Shown piece after piece: positions 3,223 to 12,215 of a stretch of DNA of 64,000 bases. Position 1 is the first letter of the stretch, and each line of letters begins with the position of its first letter. The DNA is from Escherichia coli. GTDB taxonomy: Bacteria > Pseudomonadota > Gammaproteobacteria > Enterobacterales > Enterobacteriaceae. Location: the NCBI RefSeq assembly GCF_044324785.1, contig NZ_CP172127.1. One strand, given 5' to 3'. The notes beneath the pieces are model-generated. The model was not told the DNA's origin and ran no database searches. It was given only the letters and a program-made list of their open reading frames with translations. The position numbers and the translations under genes are program-made.

Positions 3223-4035
3223 ATGGCACGCATTATTGTTGTTACTTCGGGCAAAGGGGGTGTTGGTAAGACAACCTCCAGCGCGGCCATCGCCACTGGT
3301 TTGGCCCAGAAGGGAAAGAAAACTGTCGTGATAGATTTTGATATCGGCCTGCGTAATCTCGACCTGATTATGGGTTGTGAACGTCGGGTCGTTTACGATT
3401 TCGTCAACGTCATTCAGGGCGATGCAACGCTAAATCAGGCGTTAATTAAAGATAAGCGTACTGAAAATCTCTATATTCTTCCGGCATCGCAAACTCGCGA
3501 TAAAGATGCCCTCACCCGTGAAGGGGTCGCCAAAGTTCTTGATGATCTGAAAGCGATGGACTTTGAATTTATTGTTTGCGACTCCCCGGCAGGGATTGAG
3601 ACCGGTGCGCTAATGGCACTCTATTTTGCAGACGAAGCCATTATTACCACCAACCCGGAAGTCTCCTCAGTACGCGACTCTGACCGTATTTTAGGCATTC
3701 TGGCGTCGAAATCACGCCGCGCAGAAAATGGCGAAGAGCCTATTAAAGAGCACCTGCTGTTAACGCGCTATAACCCAGGCCGCGTAAGCAGAGGTGACAT
3801 GCTGAGCATGGAAGATGTGCTGGAGATCCTGCGCATCAAACTCGTCGGTGTGATCCCTGAGGATCAATCAGTATTGCGCGCCTCTAACCAGGGTGAACCG
3901 GTCATTCTCGACATTAACGCCGATGCGGGTAAAGCCTACGCAGATACCGTAGAACGTCTGTTGGGAGAAGAACGTCCTTTCCGCTTCATTGAAGAAGAGA
4001 AGAAAGGCTTCCTCAAACGCTTGTTCGGAGGATAA
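3223..4035 (+). CDS. minD: Septum site-determining ATPase MinD
   Basis: 270 aa; deviant Walker A GKGGVGKT near N-terminus. Confidence 0.98.
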   Translation: MARIIVVTSGKGGVGKTTSSAAIATGLAQKGKKTVVIDFDIGLRNLDLIMGCERRVVYDFVNVIQGDATLNQALIKDKRTENLYILPASQTRDKDALTREGVAKVLDDLKAMDFEFIVCDSPAGIETGALMALYFADEAIITTNPEVSSVRDSDRILGILASKSRRAENGEEPIKEHLLLTRYNPGRVSRGDMLSMEDVLEILRIKLVGVIPEDQSVLRASNQGEPVILDINADAGKAYADTVERLLGEERPFRFIEEEKKGFLKRLFGG

Positions 4036-4038
4036 GTT

Positions 4039-4305
4039 ATGGCATTACTCGATTTCTTTCTCTCGCGGAAGAAAAACACGGCCAACATTGCAAAAGAACG
4101 GCTGCAGATTATTGTTGCTGAACGCCGTCGCAGCGATGCAGAACCGCACTATCTGCCGCAGTTGCGTAAAGATATTCTTGAGGTCATTTGTAAATACGTA
4201 CAAATTGATCCTGAGATGGTAACCGTACAGCTTGAGCAAAAAGATGGCGATATTTCTATTCTTGAGCTGAACGTGACCTTACCGGAAGCAGAAGAGCTGA
4301 AATAA
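4039..4305 (+). CDS. minE: Cell division topological specificity factor MinE
   Basis: 88 aa, [28 protein letters not shown]...; 3 nt after minD stop. Confidence 0.98.
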
Positions 4306-4332
4306 GCCCGCTGTAAAAGCGCATTTATCTTC

Positions 4333-4362
4333 AAGGCAGAGTCATCTCTGCCTTGAGTTTTT
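4333..4362 (+). terminator. Rho-independent terminator of the minCDE operon
   Basis: aaggcagag / ctctgcctt 9-bp stem with tcat loop, followed by gagttttt. Confidence 0.8.
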
Positions 4363-4574
4363 CATCCCCCTCATCCACGTTTGATAAGAGCGGCGAGTAT
4401 TCTTGCTGATGCTACTCATTGCTTCCCCCCCTTTACACCTTAATGCCGTTCCCCCCACACAGAACAAAATGTTTATACCTGGCTGAGTAAATAACCTTAT
4501 TGTTAGTATGGGTATGCTGGGAGATGATAACCCCGCAATTTCATTATTCATTGTTCTCCCATAGGATGAGGTTT

Positions 4575-4600
4575 CCCGCCGTAACTGGCGGGCTTTTTTT
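4575..4600 (+). terminator. Orphan intrinsic-terminator-like hairpin
   Basis: cccgcc-gtaact-ggcggg followed by ctttttttg; no annotated gene ends here. Confidence 0.5.
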
Positions 4601-4670
4601 GCCGCAGAATTTTCCCTTTTAACACCCTGTAAACGAAAACTGCGCCGAAGCGCAGTTTAATCGTTGATAG

Positions 4671-5114
4671 TCAGAACGACCAGTTCGCACCAGCCACCGC
4701 GTTCCACGGGGATTCCACACCGGCACCATGGCTATACCCCACCCCGAGATGCCCGCTTAACGAACTGCTGAATGAGGCTTTAATACCTGCCTGATATATT
4801 CCACGTCTGCCCGACAAATCATTGACAAAATTACCGTCATTATTCACTTTCACCCGGTTATCATCGACAAATTCTTTGCGCACAGCCATTTTCAGCCACG
4901 GCTCAACTTCCATGCCGTTCCCCAGACGCATGTTGTAACTCAGCGTTGCACCCAGTTCACGATATATACTGCGGGTATCGACTGATTTCGATTCCATGCC
5001 ATTGGATAAATGATAGTAGCGTCTAAGTGACCTTAGCTCTGCTGCAACATCATCCCGCAGGCACCAGACCAGGGGATTGATCCTGAAGAGGCAGCGCAAG
5101 TGTATTGTGTTCAC
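4671..5114 (-). pseudogene. ycgI: Autotransporter beta-barrel C-terminal remnant (ycgI-like)
   Basis: C-terminal ~90 aa (...GIKASFSSSLSGHLGVGYSHGAGVESPWNAVAGANWSF) resemble the end of an autotransporter translocator, terminal F; N-terminal part of the ORF is not protein-like and has no signal peptide or passenger. Confidence 0.65.
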
Positions 5115-5416
5115 CGCTCATCAAAGACATCATGATGAAATAATGATATCCCGCATAAGAAAGAGGCATTTTTTAAACGCAGTGCGCTGAAATGTAGTTG
5201 GATAAAAAAATCACTCTTTTCTGATAATACTGTTGTACGCTTATTTTTCGACAATGAGGCCGTCGACAAAATAAAATGACTAATGTAATCGTTGCTGATG
5301 AATATCTTCTGCTCACATAAAAATCACACAATAATATTGATAAATCAGATTATCTTACCTTTACAACATTGTATTAACAGTCAATGACACTTCTTGAATA
5401 AAAATATTGTCAATCA

Positions 5417-5590
5417 ATGAGTTATTTCTCATTTGAGATTATTCTTATTCCCGTAAAAAACATAATTCCTATCATCACAGTCACGCTCATTTTGAATTAT
5501 CTGAATAATAGCGAGCGTTCTTTAGTTAAGCAGATCTTAATTGAAGACGAAATTATTGTGTGTGCAACTTACTTAATACCGGACATCTAA
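5417..5590 (+). CDS. Candidate small hydrophobic protein, 57 aa (possibly ymgI)
   Basis: ATG 5417 to TAA 5588-5590 gives [57 protein letters not shown]; below the ORF-track size cutoff; the gene name is a guess from length and position. Confidence 0.4.
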
Positions 5591-5591
5591 G

Positions 5592-5936
5592 TTGAAGAAA
5601 AAAATACTTGCCTTCGGGCTTATCTCAGCATTGTTCTGCTCCACGCCAGCGATGGCGGATATGAATCGCACCACGAAAGGTGCATTGCTAGGCGCAGGCG
5701 TTGGTTTACTTACTGGCAATGGTGTTAATGGCGTACTGAAAGGTGCAGCTGTTGGCGCTGGTGTTGGTGCAGTAACAGAAAAAGGCCGCGACGGTAAAAA
5801 TGCGCGTAAAGGTGCAAAAGTGGGTGCCGCCGTTGGTGCTGTCACTGGCGTTCTGACCGGCAATGGCCTCGAAGGGGCGATTAAAGGTGCCGTGATTGGC
5901 GGTACGGGTGGTGCAATTCTGGGTAAAATGAAATAA
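5592..5936 (+). CDS. ymgG: Glycine-zipper protein YmgG, 114 aa, apparent TTG start
   Basis: [22 protein letters not shown] signal then G/A-rich repeats ([11 protein letters not shown]...). Confidence 0.8.
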
Positions 5937-5945
5937 GGAATGATG

Positions 5946-6275
5946 ATGAAAAAATTTGCTTTACTGGCGGGTCTGTTTGTTTTCGCACCAATGACCTGGG
6001 CGCAGGACTACAATATTAAAAACGGTTTGCCGTCAGAAACCTATATTACTTGCGCAGAAGCCAACGAAATGGCAAAAACTGACAGCGCACAGGTTGCAGA
6101 AATTGTTGCGGTAATGGGTAATGCCAGCGTTGCCAGCCGTGATTTAAAAATTGAGCAATCTCCGGAACTGAGCGCCAAAGTGGTAGAAAAACTGAATCAG
6201 GTTTGCGCTAAAGACCCGCAAATGCTGTTGATCACGGCAATTGATGACACCATGCGTGCTATCGGCAAAAAATAA
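5946..6275 (+). CDS. ymgD: Periplasmic protein YmgD, ~109 aa
   Basis: Track ORF 111 aa starting MMMKKF; third ATG matches the expected 109-aa length; signal peptide present. Confidence 0.8.
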   Translation: MKKFALLAGLFVFAPMTWAQDYNIKNGLPSETYITCAEANEMAKTDSAQVAEIVAVMGNASVASRDLKIEQSPELSAKVVEKLNQVCAKDPQMLLITAIDDTMRAIGKK

Positions 6276-6288
6276 TATTTAATATGTT

Positions 6289-6319
6289 ACCGCGTCGATG
6301 AATTCGACGCGGTATTTTA
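6289..6319. terminator. Hairpin between convergent ymgD and ycgH, candidate bidirectional terminator
   Basis: accgcgtcg / cgacgcggt 9-bp stem flanked by A/T-rich runs on both sides. Confidence 0.6.
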
Positions 6320-6330
6320 GCTAACGGGGA

Positions 6331-8979
6331 TCAGAACTTATATTTCAGGCCCACCATCACTGCGGTGTCATTGTAGCCATTATCACCCAGCTGCACGCCC
6401 ACATTACCCCAGACGCTGGCCGCCGGATTCAGATTGCCATTTACGCCAAGTTTAATTTCCCCCAGATTACGCGCCCCGTCTTGTTCAACTTTCACACCGT
6501 TCATTGAGACAGCAAAATCTTTACTGTTATGGATCCAGTTCATTTCAACAAAAGGTTCAAAGTCGTCACCGTGCGGACCGCTGTTTTTCTCCTGAGTACG
6601 AATAAAGGTGCGGAAGCCGAGTCGGGTCTGGATGTTGTTATTTGCGTCACTCTCAATACGTGAGCCATTGGCTTCCGTGTGCGCATTATGATCGACGCCC
6701 ATCCAGATAGCCTGTGCCTGTGGCTGGAAGATCCACGTATATTTCGCCGCTTCCAGACCAAAGGATTTATTCAGGGCAAAACCGTAACCCGCTTCCAGCG
6801 AGACGGTTGCACCTTTCGCGCTATAGGATTCATAGGCTAATTCATCTCCTTTCACCGAGTTTTTAAACCAGCTATATTGCGCCCAGGCGTCAATGTATGC
6901 GCCTTTTTTACTGATGTCATCGGCAAACCAGGTGGCATACAGCCCTGCGCTATAGCCTCTGACACTCCCTTTCGAACGATAATCCGACAAGCTGGAATGA
7001 GTTGAGTTGTAGTCGCGGGCATAACCAGCCATCACTCCCAAACGCCAACTGTCACTGTCGGTAAAACCACCGGTTAACAGATCCGCCCCTAACTGCGAGA
7101 CGTAGCGATGCGAGGTCGTTCTCAACTGTCCGTTGCTGTCACGCCAGGCATTATGCCCGCCAATTTGACGTAGCCAAAGTCGGCTTGAACGCTCCTGTTC
7201 AGTTACAGGATCGATGTAGCGCGTTTCACCTGCACGATCGTTCAGACGCATAACAAAAAGAGTGTTAGCGGCTGCCAGGTTGGCGACGTAACTTCCAGCT
7301 TCGGGGCGCAGAACGGGGGTAGGCGCAACAGTAGGCGCTGAACTTCCTCCGGAGTTTGTTTCACCGCCGCTCGTTGCCTGGAAGTTAGTCAGATACCAGT
7401 TTTTATTGGTCGCTTCGGTATTACCTCGGGTTAATGAATATTCGTAGGCACCGGCGAAAATCCTCGAATCCTTAATAAATTCCCCATTTGATTCCCCCTC
7501 AACGCTGATAATCTCTATCCCATTTAACGTGTAAGCCCCGCTGCCCCCAGCATTGGTAACTTTTACTCGGGTTGTTCCGGAGGTATTTCCATTAATAACA
7601 ACTTTATCAGTAGCTGAATTATCATCACCCAATTCAGTTCTGAGATGCAATACGCCATTATTACCAACGTAATTTTCAGTTATTGTTAACCTTGTTGGTT
7701 CGAAATCCTTTCCATCTGCCCGGGAAATATAGACCGTACTATTGTCAACCGTGAGCTTGCTCACCGTTGAGTCAGTTTTAATATCCCAGGTACTATTATC
7801 TGAAAGCGACAGATAGGTATGAGTGCTATCATCTGTTGAAAGATTGGCTGAACCCGTTATTTTTGAATTAGATGCATCGATGGCCAAATGACCTTTAATA
7901 TTATTAATAAAAACATCTGCAGCCGATGATACCTCACTATCCGTAATGGTCACGTTACTCGTCTCATTTTTATTGTATAGGATTTCATTTGCTGACCGTA
8001 GTGAGCTACCAGATAAAATATCTACCGTTGCTTCCTGACCATTTATGGAAGACTCCAGCACAACTCCAGCCCCCTGATGCGCGACTGCAAATGTATTTTT
8101 CAGCGTCACCGTGCCGCCATTATAAATTTTAGCAATCGCGGCGTCAGGACCCGTTGTATAAATTTCTCCCTGGTTAAATGAAACTGTCCCCTGGCGAGCA
8201 GCGATGGCATGAGCATTGTCCCCATGCGTGGTAATATCAACATCGGTTAATGTAACGCTGGCATTGGTATAATCAAGCTTGCTACCAGCCTTGACGACAG
8301 TGCCATTAGCGTAAGCGGCATAACTTTCTGTTCCGTGGGTTGTTATCTCCCCTTTTGCCATATCCAGTTTTGCTTTGGCGTTATTTTCATTACTTCCTGT
8401 ATCGGCAGTACTTTCTTCATCAAGAGAAGATACACACGCACGCGCGCTTCCGGGAGATGCACAAGCAAGAACGCCGACTGCGTGATTACCCGCAGTAACA
8501 ATAAAAGTATTACCTTCGTCAGATAAATGGGGGTTAACCGAACCGTCAGTGTTGACTCTTATTATGGTATCAGTATTCAGGTTTCCATTCGTTTGACTTA
8601 GCAAACCAATTGAGTAATCCCCCGTTGTGACAATCGTATTATTACCCTGCAAAATAACTGCACCGCCATATTCACTTACGACTGCGCTAGCTGTATATAC
8701 TGTGCTTAGAGGACTATTGCCAGAAGGATATAAACCACCCGTTGTTACAATGACGCCTTTGTTAATGGTTAAATTGCTACCCTCTCCTGCAACAGATACC
8801 CCGTAACTTCCATTACCCGTTGTTATAACTAGCGCATTATCAATATCTTTTACTTCTCCATCTTTTATTGCCACAGCATGTTTATATTCATCGTGCTGAA
8901 TAAACTGTTCAGCATATGCATTACCCACCGCCAAAGCAATAAGTCCTAAACTAAACCCGGGGAGTTTTTTCAGTTTCAT
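6331..8979 (-). CDS. ycgH: Autotransporter (type Va) adhesin-like protein, intact 882 aa (ycgH)
   Basis: Signal peptide MKLKKLPGFSLGLIALAVGNAYA, long G/T/S/N-rich passenger, C-terminal barrel ending ...VMVGLKYKF; position between ymgD and ymgF. Confidence 0.85.
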   Translation of the reverse strand: MKLKKLPGFSLGLIALAVGNAYAEQFIQHDEYKHAVAIKDGEVKDIDNALVITTGNGSYGVSVAGEGSNLTINKGVIVTTGGLYPSGNSPLSTVYTASAVVSEYGGAVILQGNNTIVTTGDYSIGLLSQTNGNLNTDTIIRVNTDGSVNPHLSDEGNTFIVTAGNHAVGVLACASPGSARACVSSLDEESTADTGSNENNAKAKLDMAKGEITTHGTESYAAYANGTVVKAGSKLDYTNASVTLTDVDITTHGDNAHAIAARQGTVSFNQGEIYTTGPDAAIAKIYNGGTVTLKNTFAVAHQGAGVVLESSINGQEATVDILSGSSLRSANEILYNKNETSNVTITDSEVSSAADVFINNIKGHLAIDASNSKITGSANLSTDDSTHTYLSLSDNSTWDIKTDSTVSKLTVDNSTVYISRADGKDFEPTRLTITENYVGNNGVLHLRTELGDDNSATDKVVINGNTSGTTRVKVTNAGGSGAYTLNGIEIISVEGESNGEFIKDSRIFAGAYEYSLTRGNTEATNKNWYLTNFQATSGGETNSGGSSAPTVAPTPVLRPEAGSYVANLAAANTLFVMRLNDRAGETRYIDPVTEQERSSRLWLRQIGGHNAWRDSNGQLRTTSHRYVSQLGADLLTGGFTDSDSWRLGVMAGYARDYNSTHSSLSDYRSKGSVRGYSAGLYATWFADDISKKGAYIDAWAQYSWFKNSVKGDELAYESYSAKGATVSLEAGYGFALNKSFGLEAAKYTWIFQPQAQAIWMGVDHNAHTEANGSRIESDANNNIQTRLGFRTFIRTQEKNSGPHGDDFEPFVEMNWIHNSKDFAVSMNGVKVEQDGARNLGEIKLGVNGNLNPAASVWGNVGVQLGDNGYNDTAVMVGLKYKF

Positions 8980-9378
8980 AGATTAACCATCCATTCATTG
9001 GATTAACAAACATTCCTGGTCAAATAACCTATGAGTTCAGATTACCAAAACGGAGGGTAAAGACAAAAACAAAAGCACAAAAAATTTAAATAGATAAACA
9101 GCGACAATATATAAATGATAAATAAGTCGGCATTATCATTTTTCACCTTATTTTCATGACATTGATCACTTTGAGGTGACGATTTTGTTTAACAAATAAC
9201 TCTTCGACATCAAAACTATTAATAGTTGCCATAGAAATTATTTCAATGATATATAAAAACAACTGTGATAACACCAGGGTTGACAACTATTTGCGCAATA
9301 ATTCCTTTCCTTCAATGATCCAGGCATTCACTGCCAGCAACCCATTCAGCCGCATACTGACAGTGAGAAACTGAAAGA

Positions 9379-9597
9379 TTAGTGCTGATCCCTGTGGCTG
9401 ACGAGTCTTTCCCTTAATCGATTAACCAGATTGATCGCCAGCCAAACAAGGGCATTAAGCAAATTTATCGTCACAAGCACTTCTCCCAGCCCGGTACTGG
9501 GTTTTGCAATAAGGATGACCAGGAGAGTGATCAGCATAAATGCAATGGAAAAGATGATATAGAGAGTGAAATAATCCAGATTATTACTATTGTTCAT
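9379..9597 (-). CDS. ymgF: Small inner-membrane division-associated protein YmgF, ~72 aa
   Basis: Track ORF 84 aa; internal Met (MNNSNNLDYFTLYIIFSIAFML...) gives the expected 72 aa; two hydrophobic helices. Confidence 0.65.
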   Translation of the reverse strand: MNNSNNLDYFTLYIIFSIAFMLITLLVILIAKPSTGLGEVLVTINLLNALVWLAINLVNRLRERLVSHRDQH

Positions 9598-9728
9598 GCT
9601 ACTAATGGCAATCCTGTCAAAACTTTCAAACAATTATAGCAAACAAAATAATGAACAATAGTAACAAGAGGCAACGAGCTAATTAGCTGTCTATAATTAC
9701 ACCGCACCATGGCCTTGCTGATCAATTT

Positions 9729-11252
9729 TCACTCAACCACAACCTTCACCTTCGGTTTAGAAAGGATAATTTTGACCAGGTCGATGTATGTAACAGGTTT
9801 ATAGAAATAATAACCCTGCTGAAATGTGATATTATTTTGGTTCAGATAATCAAGTTGTTCTTTCGTTTCGACACCTTCAGCGACGATACTGATCGAAAGT
9901 TTACGCGCCAGATCCAATACACAATCCAGAATTCGGGTTGATTCTGGGTCTGCGTTGACGCGGCCAACGAAACTGTGATCAATTTTGATATAATCAATAT
10001 GCAGGTCATGCAGATAAGAAAGCCCTGAGTAGCCAGTACCGAAATCATCCAGCGCGATGACAAAACCATTTTCATGCAGAATGTTCAACCGCTGAACCAG
10101 ACTTTCATCAACATTTAATGGCTCACGCTCGGTAACTTCCAGAACGAGGTTTAAATCGCGGCGGGTAAAACTGTCACGGTAATTTAAGCACTCGTCGACA
10201 AACGTCGGCGAAATAATATGCGAGGCGCTAAAATTAATTCCAATATGAAAACCCTCCGGCAGTTTACTCGAGATAGCGTTCATCTGTCTGGCAACCTGAT
10301 TCATCAGGCTTTGCGTAAGCGGAACGATTAATCCGGATTTTTCAGCAAGTGGAATAAATGCCGCGGGTGATATATATCCACCGTGAGGTTGTTTCCAGCG
10401 GGCTAACACCTCAACTCCCCGCAATGTCCCTTCCCGACCATTTACCACAGGTTGGTAAAAAGGGACGATCTCCCCATTATTTATTGCCCGTCGCAGGATC
10501 TCTTCAGGCGTTGCGCTTTTATTGAAATATCTATCAAGCAGGAAGGCAGCGGCGCAGGCGATTAACAGAATAAATATCAAAATCCCAAAGCCTTTATCGA
10601 TAAGTCTGTAGAAGCTAAAGAGTGGCGGCGGGTTAAAGATAATAGTGAAATGATATTTTGTGGAGTGAACCTTCTCGGTATAGGGATAATGTCCATTAAG
10701 AGTCATCACATCACCCGTAGGTCCAATAATGTCATCCGCCACGCGTAATACATACCTTACCCCTTTCAAGGGTACATTAAGCGCTCCGCGAATATGCTGA
10801 TCACTTATCGTAACCAAAATGCGCGTATCTGCAAATTGGCTCTGATAGAGCAGGATAGGTAATCTATTAACGGTGTCGATTGCCGGAGCCAACAGTAAAT
10901 TACTGTCCGGGAAAACAGGAATACGAGACAGCAGGACCCGATTCCCCGGTAAGGATGTACACCAGACCGCTCCCTGTTTGAGAATGATGATTGTGCGCAG
11001 GTGAGGTTTCAGAGCTGCTTCAGTGCCAAGCTGATATTGCTCCTCGAGGTCGCATTCCTTCCCGGCAATGTTAACCGCCGTTTGAGTCGCCTGTGACGCT
11101 TCTTCAAGTATATGATTGATATTGTTGGCGGCATATCTTGCTCCCGCCAGGTACTCTGCTTTTGCGGAATACCAGAGCTGGATGTTCAAAATAGCGACAC
11201 CGGTTATAAACAAGCATATCGCAATGAGGATGGGTATGAGTGTATTGCGCAT
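9729..11252 (-). CDS. pdeG: CSS-domain / EAL-domain c-di-GMP phosphodiesterase PdeG (YcgG), 507 aa
   Basis: N-terminal TM helix, periplasmic region with cysteines, second TM, C-terminal EAL-type domain (EVLARW, DDFGTGYS motifs). Confidence 0.85.
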   Translation of the reverse strand: MRNTLIPILIAICLFITGVAILNIQLWYSAKAEYLAGARYAANNINHILEEASQATQTAVNIAGKECDLEEQYQLGTEAALKPHLRTIIILKQGAVWCTSLPGNRVLLSRIPVFPDSNLLLAPAIDTVNRLPILLYQSQFADTRILVTISDQHIRGALNVPLKGVRYVLRVADDIIGPTGDVMTLNGHYPYTEKVHSTKYHFTIIFNPPPLFSFYRLIDKGFGILIFILLIACAAAFLLDRYFNKSATPEEILRRAINNGEIVPFYQPVVNGREGTLRGVEVLARWKQPHGGYISPAAFIPLAEKSGLIVPLTQSLMNQVARQMNAISSKLPEGFHIGINFSASHIISPTFVDECLNYRDSFTRRDLNLVLEVTEREPLNVDESLVQRLNILHENGFVIALDDFGTGYSGLSYLHDLHIDYIKIDHSFVGRVNADPESTRILDCVLDLARKLSISIVAEGVETKEQLDYLNQNNITFQQGYYFYKPVTYIDLVKIILSKPKVKVVVE

Positions 11253-11587
11253 TCACTTGTCCCGGCCAAAGGGTTTAATACATAAAAATGACATTCATTC
11301 GCTCGCGCTGGCGTCTACAGAGAGCATGGTAGAGAGCATCACAAATATCCACGCCGAAGATAAAATTTTCTCCATCTTCATCTAACCTATTAATTATTGA
11401 GCATAATGTAGGCAGAATTAAACAAATTAGGCGGGATATCAGGCGTCAAGAATGGAAAACGAGCGCTCTCCATTCTTGTTGGCTCCCTGATATTGCGGAT
11501 ATATTAAGAAAGCATAACGCCTGAAATGCTCACTTTGCACCAGCATGGTGATACATCTGATCTTTATTCTAAAGCCTTCCACAAGTT

Positions 11588-11836
11588 TTAAGAGAGCACG
11601 GATTCCCTGTCATTAATAATGATATCCGCTAGTGTAGTCTTATGCATTTCAATGTACTGCAAGATTTGCAGATAGAGATCAGAAAGAATCACACTGGTTT
11701 CATCTTTTAAACGCAAGCGTAAAGCCTGATCAATAATATGACTATCAACATATCCATGCGTCATGAACACCTCCCTCTCAAGATTTTTAAACAAAGCACA
11801 TTGAAAAATAAATCTCTCTGGGATTGAATTATTCAT
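11588..11836 (-). CDS. ymgC: YmgC, last gene of the ycgZ-ymgA-ariR-ymgC operon
   Basis: Track ORF 91 aa; internal Met MNNSIPERF... gives ~82 aa; synteny. Confidence 0.7.
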   Translation of the reverse strand: MNNSIPERFIFQCALFKNLEREVFMTHGYVDSHIIDQALRLRLKDETSVILSDLYLQILQYIEMHKTTLADIIINDRESVLS

Positions 11837-11948
11837 GTCAGCCTCGTAGGAATAGTGACCCAATAAAATTATGCTGTGTATAGTCTAAAGCGACAGACAA
11901 AAATAAGATGAATGAGTTTTCTAAAAACTTATACTTAACAATTAAAAG

Positions 11949-12215
11949 TTACATATCATCAGCTGTGTATCGCAACACGATTTCCAGTGTTTTTCTAATC
12001 ACATCAGCTTTAAGAATATCATTTGTTGTTTCCAGGGAGTGTATCAGACTTAAGATAATATTTTTATTATTAACATTATCGCCTGAAAGCATTAAATTGG
12101 TCACAGCCTGCCCTAACACAGCTGACTCTTCTTCTAACAAATTACCTGAACTACGAAAGTAACTTGATAACGCTTTATCAGTTATTGCATTATGAATAGT
12201 AGTATCTTCAAGCAT
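11949..12215 (-). CDS. ariR: Biofilm/acid-resistance connector AriR (YmgB), 88 aa
   Basis: 88 aa; third gene of the ycgZ operon. Confidence 0.8.

Follow-up and report, generated by a model that had tools for sequence, protein, structure and literature searches.

An intact ECIAI39_1904-family autotransporter gene at the ycgH locus of Escherichia coli

The described systems closest to the gene considered here are AIDA-I of E. coli 2787 (structure 4MEE), pertactin of Bordetella (P.69, 1DAB) together with IcsA (5KE1 and 3ML3), and YcgH of E. coli. AIDA-I shares with it, by both sequence and fold, an autochaperone, a linker helix and a 12-strand barrel, but the match to the NCBIfam model covers only aa 429-882 (score 322 bits versus a cut-off of 1,200 bits), and the passenger here is much shorter and has no detected AIDA repeat family. 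Pertactin and IcsA have a right-handed beta-helix passenger and a type 1 autochaperone in common with it, but they belong to a different organism and locus and show only 12-20% identity outside the autochaperone. YcgH occupies the same ymgD-ymgF locus and has an identical 23-aa signal peptide, a near-identical linker and barrel, and the same architecture, down to a pair of conserved Cys residues in the passenger, whereas its passenger has a GC content of 39% compared with 43% here and it is named as a separate family. From other members of the ECIAI39_1904 family the protein is structurally no different; in the majority of carriers, O104:H4 among them, the gene is frameshifted.

The gene lies on the minus strand at 6331..8979 of the window, the whole 64,000-nucleotide stretch of E. 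coli DNA that was analyzed, and comprises 882 codons plus a stop. In the ORF list it begins with ATG, has no internal stop and ends in VMVGLKYKF; since the DNA is 49% GC, a reading frame of this length is not attributable to chance. The Sec signal peptide (aa 1-23; 8911..8979, minus strand), read from the sequence as MKLKKLPGFSLGLIALAVGNAYA and followed by EQ, has a basic n-region (MKLKK), a hydrophobic core (mean Kyte-Doolittle hydropathy 1.76 over aa 7-19) and an A-Y-A cleavage motif, and protein alignment shows the same first 23 residues in the intact YcgH-type and most ECIAI39-type proteins. The passenger domain, a variable cassette delimited by DNA and protein alignments and by GC content, follows at aa 24-553 (7321..8910, minus strand), and its GC content of 43% compares with 51% in the barrel. 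At its C-terminal end, Pfam PF18883 (Autochaperone type 1, AC_1) marks an autochaperone domain at aa 404-516 (7432..7770, minus strand; E 6.3e-30), overlapped by a Pfam Pertactin domain at aa 406-531. The barrel (aa 600-882; 6334..7182, minus strand) is identified by PF03797 (Autotransporter beta-domain, aa 601-860, E 1.7e-41) and by NCBIfam TIGR01414 (E 1e-111), with further C-terminal matches to the NCBIfam models for AIDA-I, MisL and YfaL. Between the gene and the convergent ymgD, a terminator scan found a GC-rich terminator-like hairpin at 6288..6314 with an 11-bp stem containing 7 GC pairs. The initial annotation had described an intact 882-aa autotransporter with a signal peptide, a passenger and an unbroken barrel ending in KYKF, and the ORF list and Pfam matches bear this out.

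Structure prediction gave a similar picture. The AlphaFold2 model (pLDDT 88, pTM 0.81) has an all-beta passenger over aa 34-531, mostly with pLDDT above 90, forming a continuous stack of beta-strands without a globular insert, then a helix at aa 559-573 and twelve barrel strands over aa 600-881. This helix, also supported by alignment to 4MEE, is the linker (7261..7305, minus strand). Foldseek concurs with both the beta-helical passenger and the 12-strand barrel that the initial annotation had proposed to look for: AIDA-I 4MEE was found with E 1.1e-24 (TM 0.95 normalized to the target, rmsd 2.5 A, 35% identity) and also by sequence over aa 430-882 (E 5e-84), while pertactin 1DAB was matched with E 1.4e-8. 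The IcsA fragments 3ML3 and 5KE1, which cover the autochaperone region, were both matched by sequence, and 3ML3 by fold as well. Judged by sequence and predicted model, the gene product thus has all the structural parts of a classical (type Va) autotransporter and belongs to the AIDA-I type.

We assign a probability of roughly 80% to the reading as a whole, in which the gene encodes a complete AIDA-I-type type Va autotransporter, the ECIAI39_1904 allele of the ycgH locus, with a putative role as a surface adhesin. Going by what is established for type Va secretion, we infer that the 23-residue signal peptide would route the protein through Sec, and that BAM would insert the C-terminal barrel (aa ~600-882) in the outer membrane with the linker helix (aa 559-573) within the pore. 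The passenger (aa 24-553) would then be threaded outward C-terminus first, and the autochaperone segment (aa 404-516) would fold first and serve as the template for a pertactin-like beta-helix stacked on the surface of the cell. By analogy with other E. coli AIDA-I-type autotransporters, the most likely role of the passenger there would be in adhesion, aggregation or biofilm formation. The Pfam scan (E <= 0.01) returned only the Autotransporter, AC_1 and Pertactin families and detected none of the ~19-residue AIDA-type repeats in the passenger, so a self-association mechanism like that of AIDA-I or Ag43 cannot be assumed.

The locus, between ymgD and ymgF, is the site of ycgH in K-12 MG1655, where ycgH is annotated as "frameshifted; internal stop". 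Relative to intact YcgH, the K-12 gene has a nonsense mutation that turns codon 507 from CAA into TAA, and it has lost 1 bp in the barrel at codon ~858, which agrees with the statement in the initial annotation that it is a pseudogene. The same annotation took the gene here to be an intact copy of K-12 ycgH, and this did not hold. When the gene was aligned to K-12 ycgH and intact homologues, it proved to be intact and to share the signal peptide and barrel, but its passenger differs: the 530 residues of aa 24-553 have 43.8% amino acid identity and ~50% DNA identity to YcgH with many indels, and passenger dS is saturated at 2.17 compared with 0.066 for the barrel. By comparison, aa 554-882 share 327 of 329 residues with intact YcgH, and the barrel is ~98% identical to that of K-12 ycgH, the two genes being 2,649 and 2,648 nt long. 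Megablast against the K-12 type accordingly aligned only 40% of the gene, corresponding to the barrel and signal peptide. The true intact YcgH, an 887-aa protein with 63% overall identity to the one here, occurs in other strains such as O157:H16 Santai, and RefSeq keeps the two apart as "autotransporter YcgH" and "ECIAI39_1904 family autotransporter adhesin".

In a search of 1.84 billion representative proteins, the YcgH type was the closest passenger found; the next relatives in that set, ~40% identical, are from Enterobacter, Providencia, Citrobacter, Yersinia and Pantoea. Within E. coli, the barrel of the window gene differs by 4 nt from that of the YcgH-type strain PKF4 versus 28 nt from that of O104:H4, which is ECIAI39-type. 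Because barrel sequence tracks the strain background and not the passenger type, the passenger acts like a cassette that moves by recombination. The pattern suggests two ancient passenger cassettes, ECIAI39_1904 and YcgH, set between a common signal peptide and barrel, that would have been recombined onto different backgrounds. A profile scan for both passenger types over one genome per species, based on only two peptide patterns, found no donor or outgroup. Its sole match was a 1.7-kb contig from a "Collinsella sp." MAG with 93% identity, which we read as E. coli contamination.

The rival that survives best, a substantial possibility although short of even odds, is that of a cryptic gene, whose reading frame is intact but whose transcription is shut off (H-NS being one candidate), so that it makes no practical contribution and has simply escaped inactivating mutation so far in this lineage. 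The presumed promoter region, the intergenic stretch from ymgF to the gene (8980..9378, minus strand), is compatible with silencing, being AT-rich (34% GC) and 96% identical to the K-12 upstream region, and a consensus scan of its minus strand gave no strong sigma-70 site. A genomic SELEX study marks the ymgF-ycgH spacer of K-12 as bound by H-NS, which favors silencing; the RpoD promoter that it also places there argues against it (PMC3946193), as does a sigma-S ChIP peak at K-12 ycgH (PMC4447067). The promoter hexamers given for the spacer, TTGACA-19-TATAAG (PMC3946193), are absent from both the window and the K-12 upstream sequence, so we draw on that paper only for the presence of a promoter and an H-NS site in the spacer. 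With its AT-rich upstream region and the H-NS mark on the K-12 spacer, the gene may therefore be silent, but functional adhesin expression in this strain is plausible. H-NS commonly silences E. coli autotransporters that do function on derepression. Searchable literature held no functional study of ycgH or ECIAI39_1904; the two names occur there in metabolic-engineering work that integrates into the K-12 pseudogene, in ChIP and SELEX tables, and in one virulence-gene survey.

The record of inactivation also bears on whether the gene is cryptic. Among the 5,426 complete genomes of E. coli covered, 1,786 have the passenger type seen here and 3,294 the YcgH type. Most carriers of the ECIAI39 type have a 1-bp frameshift, seen as a split annotation among sampled carriers, and roughly one-fifth look intact. 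Alignment of the genes from the window, N3, CH4796 and O104:H4 placed this lesion at a GGGG run (gene nt ~177-180; 8800..8803, minus strand), where O104:H4 lacks one G and its gene is split by the resulting frameshift. Phase variation at this run was considered and rejected, as the tract is too short and the 1-bp deletion goes with a distinct allele class of ~96% identity; this judgement comes from sampled rows, in which near-identical alleles lack the deletion. Lesions of no fewer than four independent kinds were observed at ycgH: the nonsense and frameshift mutations of K-12, a 1-bp deletion in B1, a frameshift in PKF4 and a large deletion in B2/ST131. Both passenger types have been inactivated independently in most lineages, including K-12-like, B1, PKF4 and B2, and the strain of the window is in the minority that retains an intact copy. 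Loss from most lineages suggests that the gene is dispensable, as expected if it were cryptic. Of the repeated gain and decay that the initial annotation had envisaged for this patch, decay is borne out by these ycgH lesions and the ycgI deletion described below, but for gain only the swapping of passenger alleles was seen.

Against a cryptic gene stands the persistence of several diverged intact alleles (those of the window, CH4796, GPT24 and the 892-aa variants), which differ by 2-3% at the DNA level and are free of stops and frameshifts; the window and CH4796 genes alone are separated by 68 substitutions, none creating a stop codon. In comparisons among intact alleles, dN/dS spans 0.43-0.65 for the passenger and 0.02-0.08 for the barrel, values below 1 that likewise speak for function. 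Passenger dN/dS against the frameshifted O104:H4 allele is 0.49-0.57, however, much like the intact-intact comparisons, which favors a cryptic gene. Because passenger dN/dS is no lower among intact alleles, purifying selection specific to intact copies is not demonstrated.

A quite improbable alternative is that the passenger of this complete autotransporter is not an adhesin but has another activity, as a protease, esterase or toxin in the manner of SPATE or GDSL autotransporters. While neither Pfam nor NCBIfam gave a match of known function for aa 24-400, leaving room for such an activity, Pfam detected no peptidase S6, subtilase or GDSL domain, and the unbroken strand stack of the model offers no globular insert in which one might reside. 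The top folds for the passenger were pertactin and IcsA, and the nearest sequence families were the adhesins AIDA-I, MisL, ShdA and YfaL/EhaC. Least probable of all, the proposal that the gene is K-12 ycgH in undamaged ancestral form draws on the same position, signal peptide and near-equal length and the ~98% barrel identity, but is refuted by the alignments of the indel-rich passenger (~50% DNA and 43.8% amino acid identity) and by the existence of the undamaged K-12-type protein as a different, 887-aa product under a second RefSeq family name.

Returning to the preferred reading of an adhesin-like allele of the ycgH locus, its two passengers raise a more tentative suggestion, which we hold to be rather unlikely: that the locus is an old, selectively maintained dimorphism, in which two cassettes are shuffled at conserved ends and each is repeatedly inactivated. 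If true, this would fit frequency-dependent or host- or immune-driven selection on a surface antigen. We found no description of such a dimorphism at the ycgH locus in searchable literature.

The gene is an ECIAI39_1904-family allele of the ycgH locus that has already been catalogued. The exact 882-aa protein is present in NCBI and UniRef as an ECIAI39_1904 family autotransporter adhesin and occurs on at least 159 contigs, and draft assemblies carry the gene at the same locus with 100% identity to the window over 8.6 kb. Strain N3 has a 99.8% identical gene that RefSeq annotates to the same family, and the copies in P0001 and P0002 are 98-99% identical to the protein here over 100% of its length. 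The 882-aa and 892-aa clusters of the family are 94% identical to it, the 892-aa members being longer by expansion of a GEVK repeat near the passenger N-terminus. The NCBIfam HMM library contains no model under the ECIAI39_1904 name, which we assume to come from a sequence-similarity rule. ECIAI39_1904 is listed among VFDB genes (PMC5654935).

The finding is real but ordinary, and its importance lies mainly in correct annotation. Comparisons made against K-12 should not equate an "intact ycgH" found in a different strain with the repaired K-12 protein, as one locus name covers two passenger types, and a strain may hold a live or dead copy of either, or a remnant. This affects virulence-gene typing, in which ECIAI39_1904 is scored as a VFDB marker, and is relevant to choosing uncharacterized E. 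coli autotransporters for tests of adhesion or biofilm formation. The locus also illustrates, cleanly and on a small scale, how surface proteins exchange passenger cassettes and how their genes are lost again and again.

In family scans, the neighboring ycgI, a 147-aa ORF (4671..5114, minus strand), covered no more of the autotransporter barrel model than its final ~115 positions. Strain CH4796 has an intact 1,122-aa autotransporter at the ycgI site, and ycgI aligns to the 3′ end of this gene, so that the barrel remnant recognized in the initial annotation has a full-length counterpart. Compared with the CH4796 gene, the deletion that left ycgI starts immediately ahead of the start codon and stops close to the 3′ end. 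On these alignments, ycgI is the barrel end, some 115 codons, of a deleted autotransporter, a paralogue of ypjA/EhaD. The intact CH4796 gene has ~92% identity to ypjA genes that other chromosomes carry at different positions, and matches to it of 95% identity or above occur in ~437 genomes.

Within the window, a single ATG-started open reading frame at the ycgH locus (6331-8979, minus strand) was found to encode 882 amino acids without internal stops, in agreement with the initial annotation of an intact gene, which did not mention the strand. The gene is flanked by ymgD and ymgF, with minCDE, the ycgI remnant and ymgJ/I/G/D on the ymgD side and ymgF, pdeG, ymgC, ariR, ymgA, ycgZ and bluF on the other, and ycgH of K-12 MG1655, flagged by RefSeq as "frameshifted; internal stop", occupies the identical position. 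Using the intact YcgH of O157:H16 Santai (887 aa, without a pseudogene flag) as the reference, we located three lesions in the K-12 gene: a nonsense change in codon 507 (CAA to TAA), loss of 1 bp at barrel codon ~858 that removes the last barrel strands, and an in-frame 15-bp deletion. Together with the RefSeq flag, the nonsense codon and the 1-bp deletion confirm that K-12 ycgH is a disrupted pseudogene, as had been stated and as is standard annotation. Between the convergent ymgD and the autotransporter gene, we noted a GC-rich hairpin (6288-6314; stem of 11 bp) that looks like a shared terminator, possibly bidirectional.

The window gene is not, as had been implied, an undamaged K-12 ycgH. 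In a megablast search of 5,426 complete E. coli genomes, K-12-type ycgH matched over only 40% of the gene, namely its last ~995 nt and first ~68 nt, and global DNA alignment with the K-12 gene gave ~98% identity at both ends versus ~50% over gene nt ~75-1750. At the protein level, the 23-aa signal peptide is identical to that of the YcgH type and the linker and barrel (aa 554-882) match at 327 of 329 residues (dS 0.066), whereas the passenger (aa 24-553) reaches only 43.8% identity, with gaps in 35 alignment columns and saturated synonymous divergence (dS ~2.2, dN/dS 0.24). Divergence sets in at the signal-peptidase site and stops where the linker begins (TPVLRPEAGSY...); GC content is 43% in the window passenger, 39% in that of K-12, and 51% in the barrel. 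RefSeq also keeps the two types apart by name, calling that of the window "ECIAI39_1904 family autotransporter adhesin" and that of K-12 "autotransporter YcgH", and intact YcgH is a different protein of 887 aa with many representatives. Judged by these sequence comparisons, the window gene is therefore the other passenger allele at ycgH and not the K-12 gene before its decay.

Passenger type does not predict how the barrel and flanks group. Within the final ~995 nt, the window differs from PKF4, a YcgH-type strain, by 4 nt and from O104:H4, which has the same passenger type as the window, by 28 nt; likewise, the barrel of GPT24 (ECIAI39 type) is nearest to that of Santai (YcgH type), 8 nt apart. 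The passenger thus appears to behave as a cassette, and either homologous recombination through the conserved ends would have moved passengers between backgrounds or gene conversion would have homogenized the barrels. Among 1.84 billion representative proteins, we found no passenger relative closer than YcgH; the next-best matches, ~40% identical, were autotransporters of Enterobacter, Providencia, Citrobacter, Yersinia and Pantoea. A one-genome-per-species scan for the passengers returned a single match, a contaminated metagenome-assembled contig: this 1.7-kb sequence (JAIJJM010000671.1, "MAG: Collinsella sp.") encodes a window-type passenger at 93% identity and almost certainly entered the bin as E. 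coli contamination.

The encoded protein has the architecture of a classical type Va autotransporter. Its N-terminus (MKLKKLPGFSLGLIALAVGNAYA, followed by EQ) looks like a Sec signal peptide, in which a basic n-region is followed by a hydrophobic core (mean Kyte-Doolittle 1.76 over aa 7-19) and then by an A-x-A cleavage motif. Its C-terminus (...VMVGLKYKF) alternates in hydrophobicity and closes with an aromatic residue, as is typical of outer-membrane barrels. Pfam identified an autotransporter beta-domain (aa 601-860, E 1.7e-41), a type 1 autochaperone (aa 404-516, E 6e-30) and a pertactin domain (aa 406-531), while in NCBIfam the TIGR01414 autotransporter barrel model matched at E 1e-111 and the C-terminal matches to the ECSE_1600 family, MisL, AIDA-I, ShdA and YfaL/EhaC all fell far under the full-length cut-offs. 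An AlphaFold2 model built from a 96-sequence alignment (mean pLDDT 88, pTM 0.81) supports the expected beta-helix passenger and 12-strand barrel, with an all-beta passenger (aa 34-531), an alpha-helix (aa 559-573) and twelve long antiparallel strands (aa 600-881). The top Foldseek match in the PDB was the AIDA-I transport unit 4MEE (E 1.1e-24, TM 0.95 on target, rmsd 2.5 Å), in agreement with a PDB sequence search (4MEE over aa 430-882, E 5e-84), followed by the barrels of Hbp, EspP, BrkA and NalP; for the passenger, matches were found to pertactin 1DAB (E 1.4e-8) as well as to the passenger and autochaperone of IcsA. By the established type Va pathway, the protein would be exported by Sec and its barrel inserted with the help of BAM, with the linker helix sitting in the pore; the passenger would then cross the outer membrane C-to-N, and the autochaperone would template beta-helix folding on the cell surface. 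Since no enzymatic domain was detected and the nearest named families (AIDA-I, MisL, ShdA, YfaL/EhaC) are adhesins, the putative role is most likely adhesion, aggregation or biofilm formation.

Two features of the passenger stood out upon inspection. The only two cysteines of the protein (aa 173 and 182, ACASPGSARAC; 8434-8463, minus strand) are invariant across both passenger types despite 44% passenger identity, and they fall within a loop that was modelled with lower confidence, suggesting a conserved loop closed by a disulphide bond. At the N-terminal tip, a GEVK motif occurring once (aa 39-45; ~8845-8865, minus strand) is expanded to GEVKNGEVKGGEVKY in 892-aa family members, a small repeat-length polymorphism.

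The window passenger type was present in 1,786 of the 5,426 complete genomes and the YcgH type in 3,294, with ≥80% of the passenger covered in 2,114 of the latter. The ~1,180 shorter YcgH-type matches were, where sampled, mostly half-deleted remnants in B2 strains (for example ST131 and ATCC 25922), which agrees with a survey reporting ECIAI39_1904 as absent from ST131 and present in ST38, ST405 and ST648 (PMC5654935). The majority of ECIAI39-type carriers belong to a ~96%-identity class, including O104:H4, O111, O103 and many others, with matches 1 bp shorter than the query. In O104:H4, the only class member examined, one G is lost from a GGGG run at gene nt ~180, so that the gene is split into a 69-aa ORF and a 773-aa ORF without a signal peptide; 773-aa products fill the largest protein clusters. 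A single full-length family name was found on 13 of 60 evenly spaced records, and all three full-length annotations checked (N3, CH4796 and GPT24) were intact and free of a pseudogene flag. As a rough estimate from these annotation names, about one carrier in five, equivalent to ~7% of all complete genomes, would hold an intact copy. The locus has been inactivated independently in at least four ways, by the K-12 lesions, by separate frameshifts in B1 and in PKF4, and by the deletion seen in B2.

The neighboring ycgI (4671-5114, minus strand) had been described as a barrel remnant, and family scans indeed showed that nothing more than the final ~115 residues of such a barrel is encoded there. 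At the matching site, CH4796 carries an intact 1,122-aa autotransporter annotated YpjA/EhaD (compared region: L003 4670-8038). Similarity between the two strains ends just before the start codon of this gene and resumes within its last ~115 codons, indicating a ~3-kb deletion in the window. The intact gene shares ~92% identity with ypjA genes that other strains carry elsewhere on the chromosome, with copies at ≥95% identity in ~437 of 5,426 complete genomes; the remnant is thus the residue of a second autotransporter, a ypjA/EhaD paralogue. Of the proposed repeated gain and decay in this patch, decay is supported for two autotransporter genes, but gain was seen only as passenger replacement.

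H-NS silencing is common among E. coli autotransporter genes. The 421 nt preceding the start codon share 96% identity with K-12 and have 34% GC, and a consensus scan found no strong sigma-70 site there. For the ymgF-ycgH spacer of K-12, a genomic SELEX study records both an RpoD promoter and an H-NS mark (PMC3946193), and a sigma-S ChIP-seq peak lies at ycgH (PMC4447067). Given the AT-rich, K-12-like upstream region, the K-12 H-NS mark and the lack of a strong sigma-70 site, the window gene may be silenced by H-NS in laboratory conditions. Between intact alleles, dN/dS was 0.02-0.08 for barrels and 0.43-0.65 for passengers, the latter no lower than against the frameshifted O104:H4 allele (0.49-0.57), and the 68 substitutions between the window and CH4796 created no new stop codons. 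These ratios and the absence of stops are mild evidence favoring maintenance of the reading frame, although the passenger values do not set intact copies apart from the frameshifted allele as regards selection.

The intact gene is a correct yet ordinary observation on a catalogued gene: NCBI and UniRef already list an identical 882-aa protein, seen on 159 contigs, under the name [quoted passage not shown], and ECIAI39_1904 is scored as a VFDB marker. We found no description in the searchable literature of the two-cassette locus structure with recombination-decoupled barrels. As a population-genetic observation this is modest, and comparable cases are known among other surface proteins. The window shares 100% identity over 8.6 kb (3331-11979) with the draft assemblies GCA_044690705.1 and GCA_045905035.1, and ~12.6 kb around the gene is nearly identical to N3. 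In 25-kb blocks, positions 1-50000 reached at most 98.4-98.8% identity to any of the 5,426 complete genomes; either the lineage of this strain is poorly represented among them or the region is mosaic. The block at 25001-50000 matched E. coli genomes at a median of 13 places each, with a maximum of 37, indicating a short repeated element within it, for example REP or IS-like.
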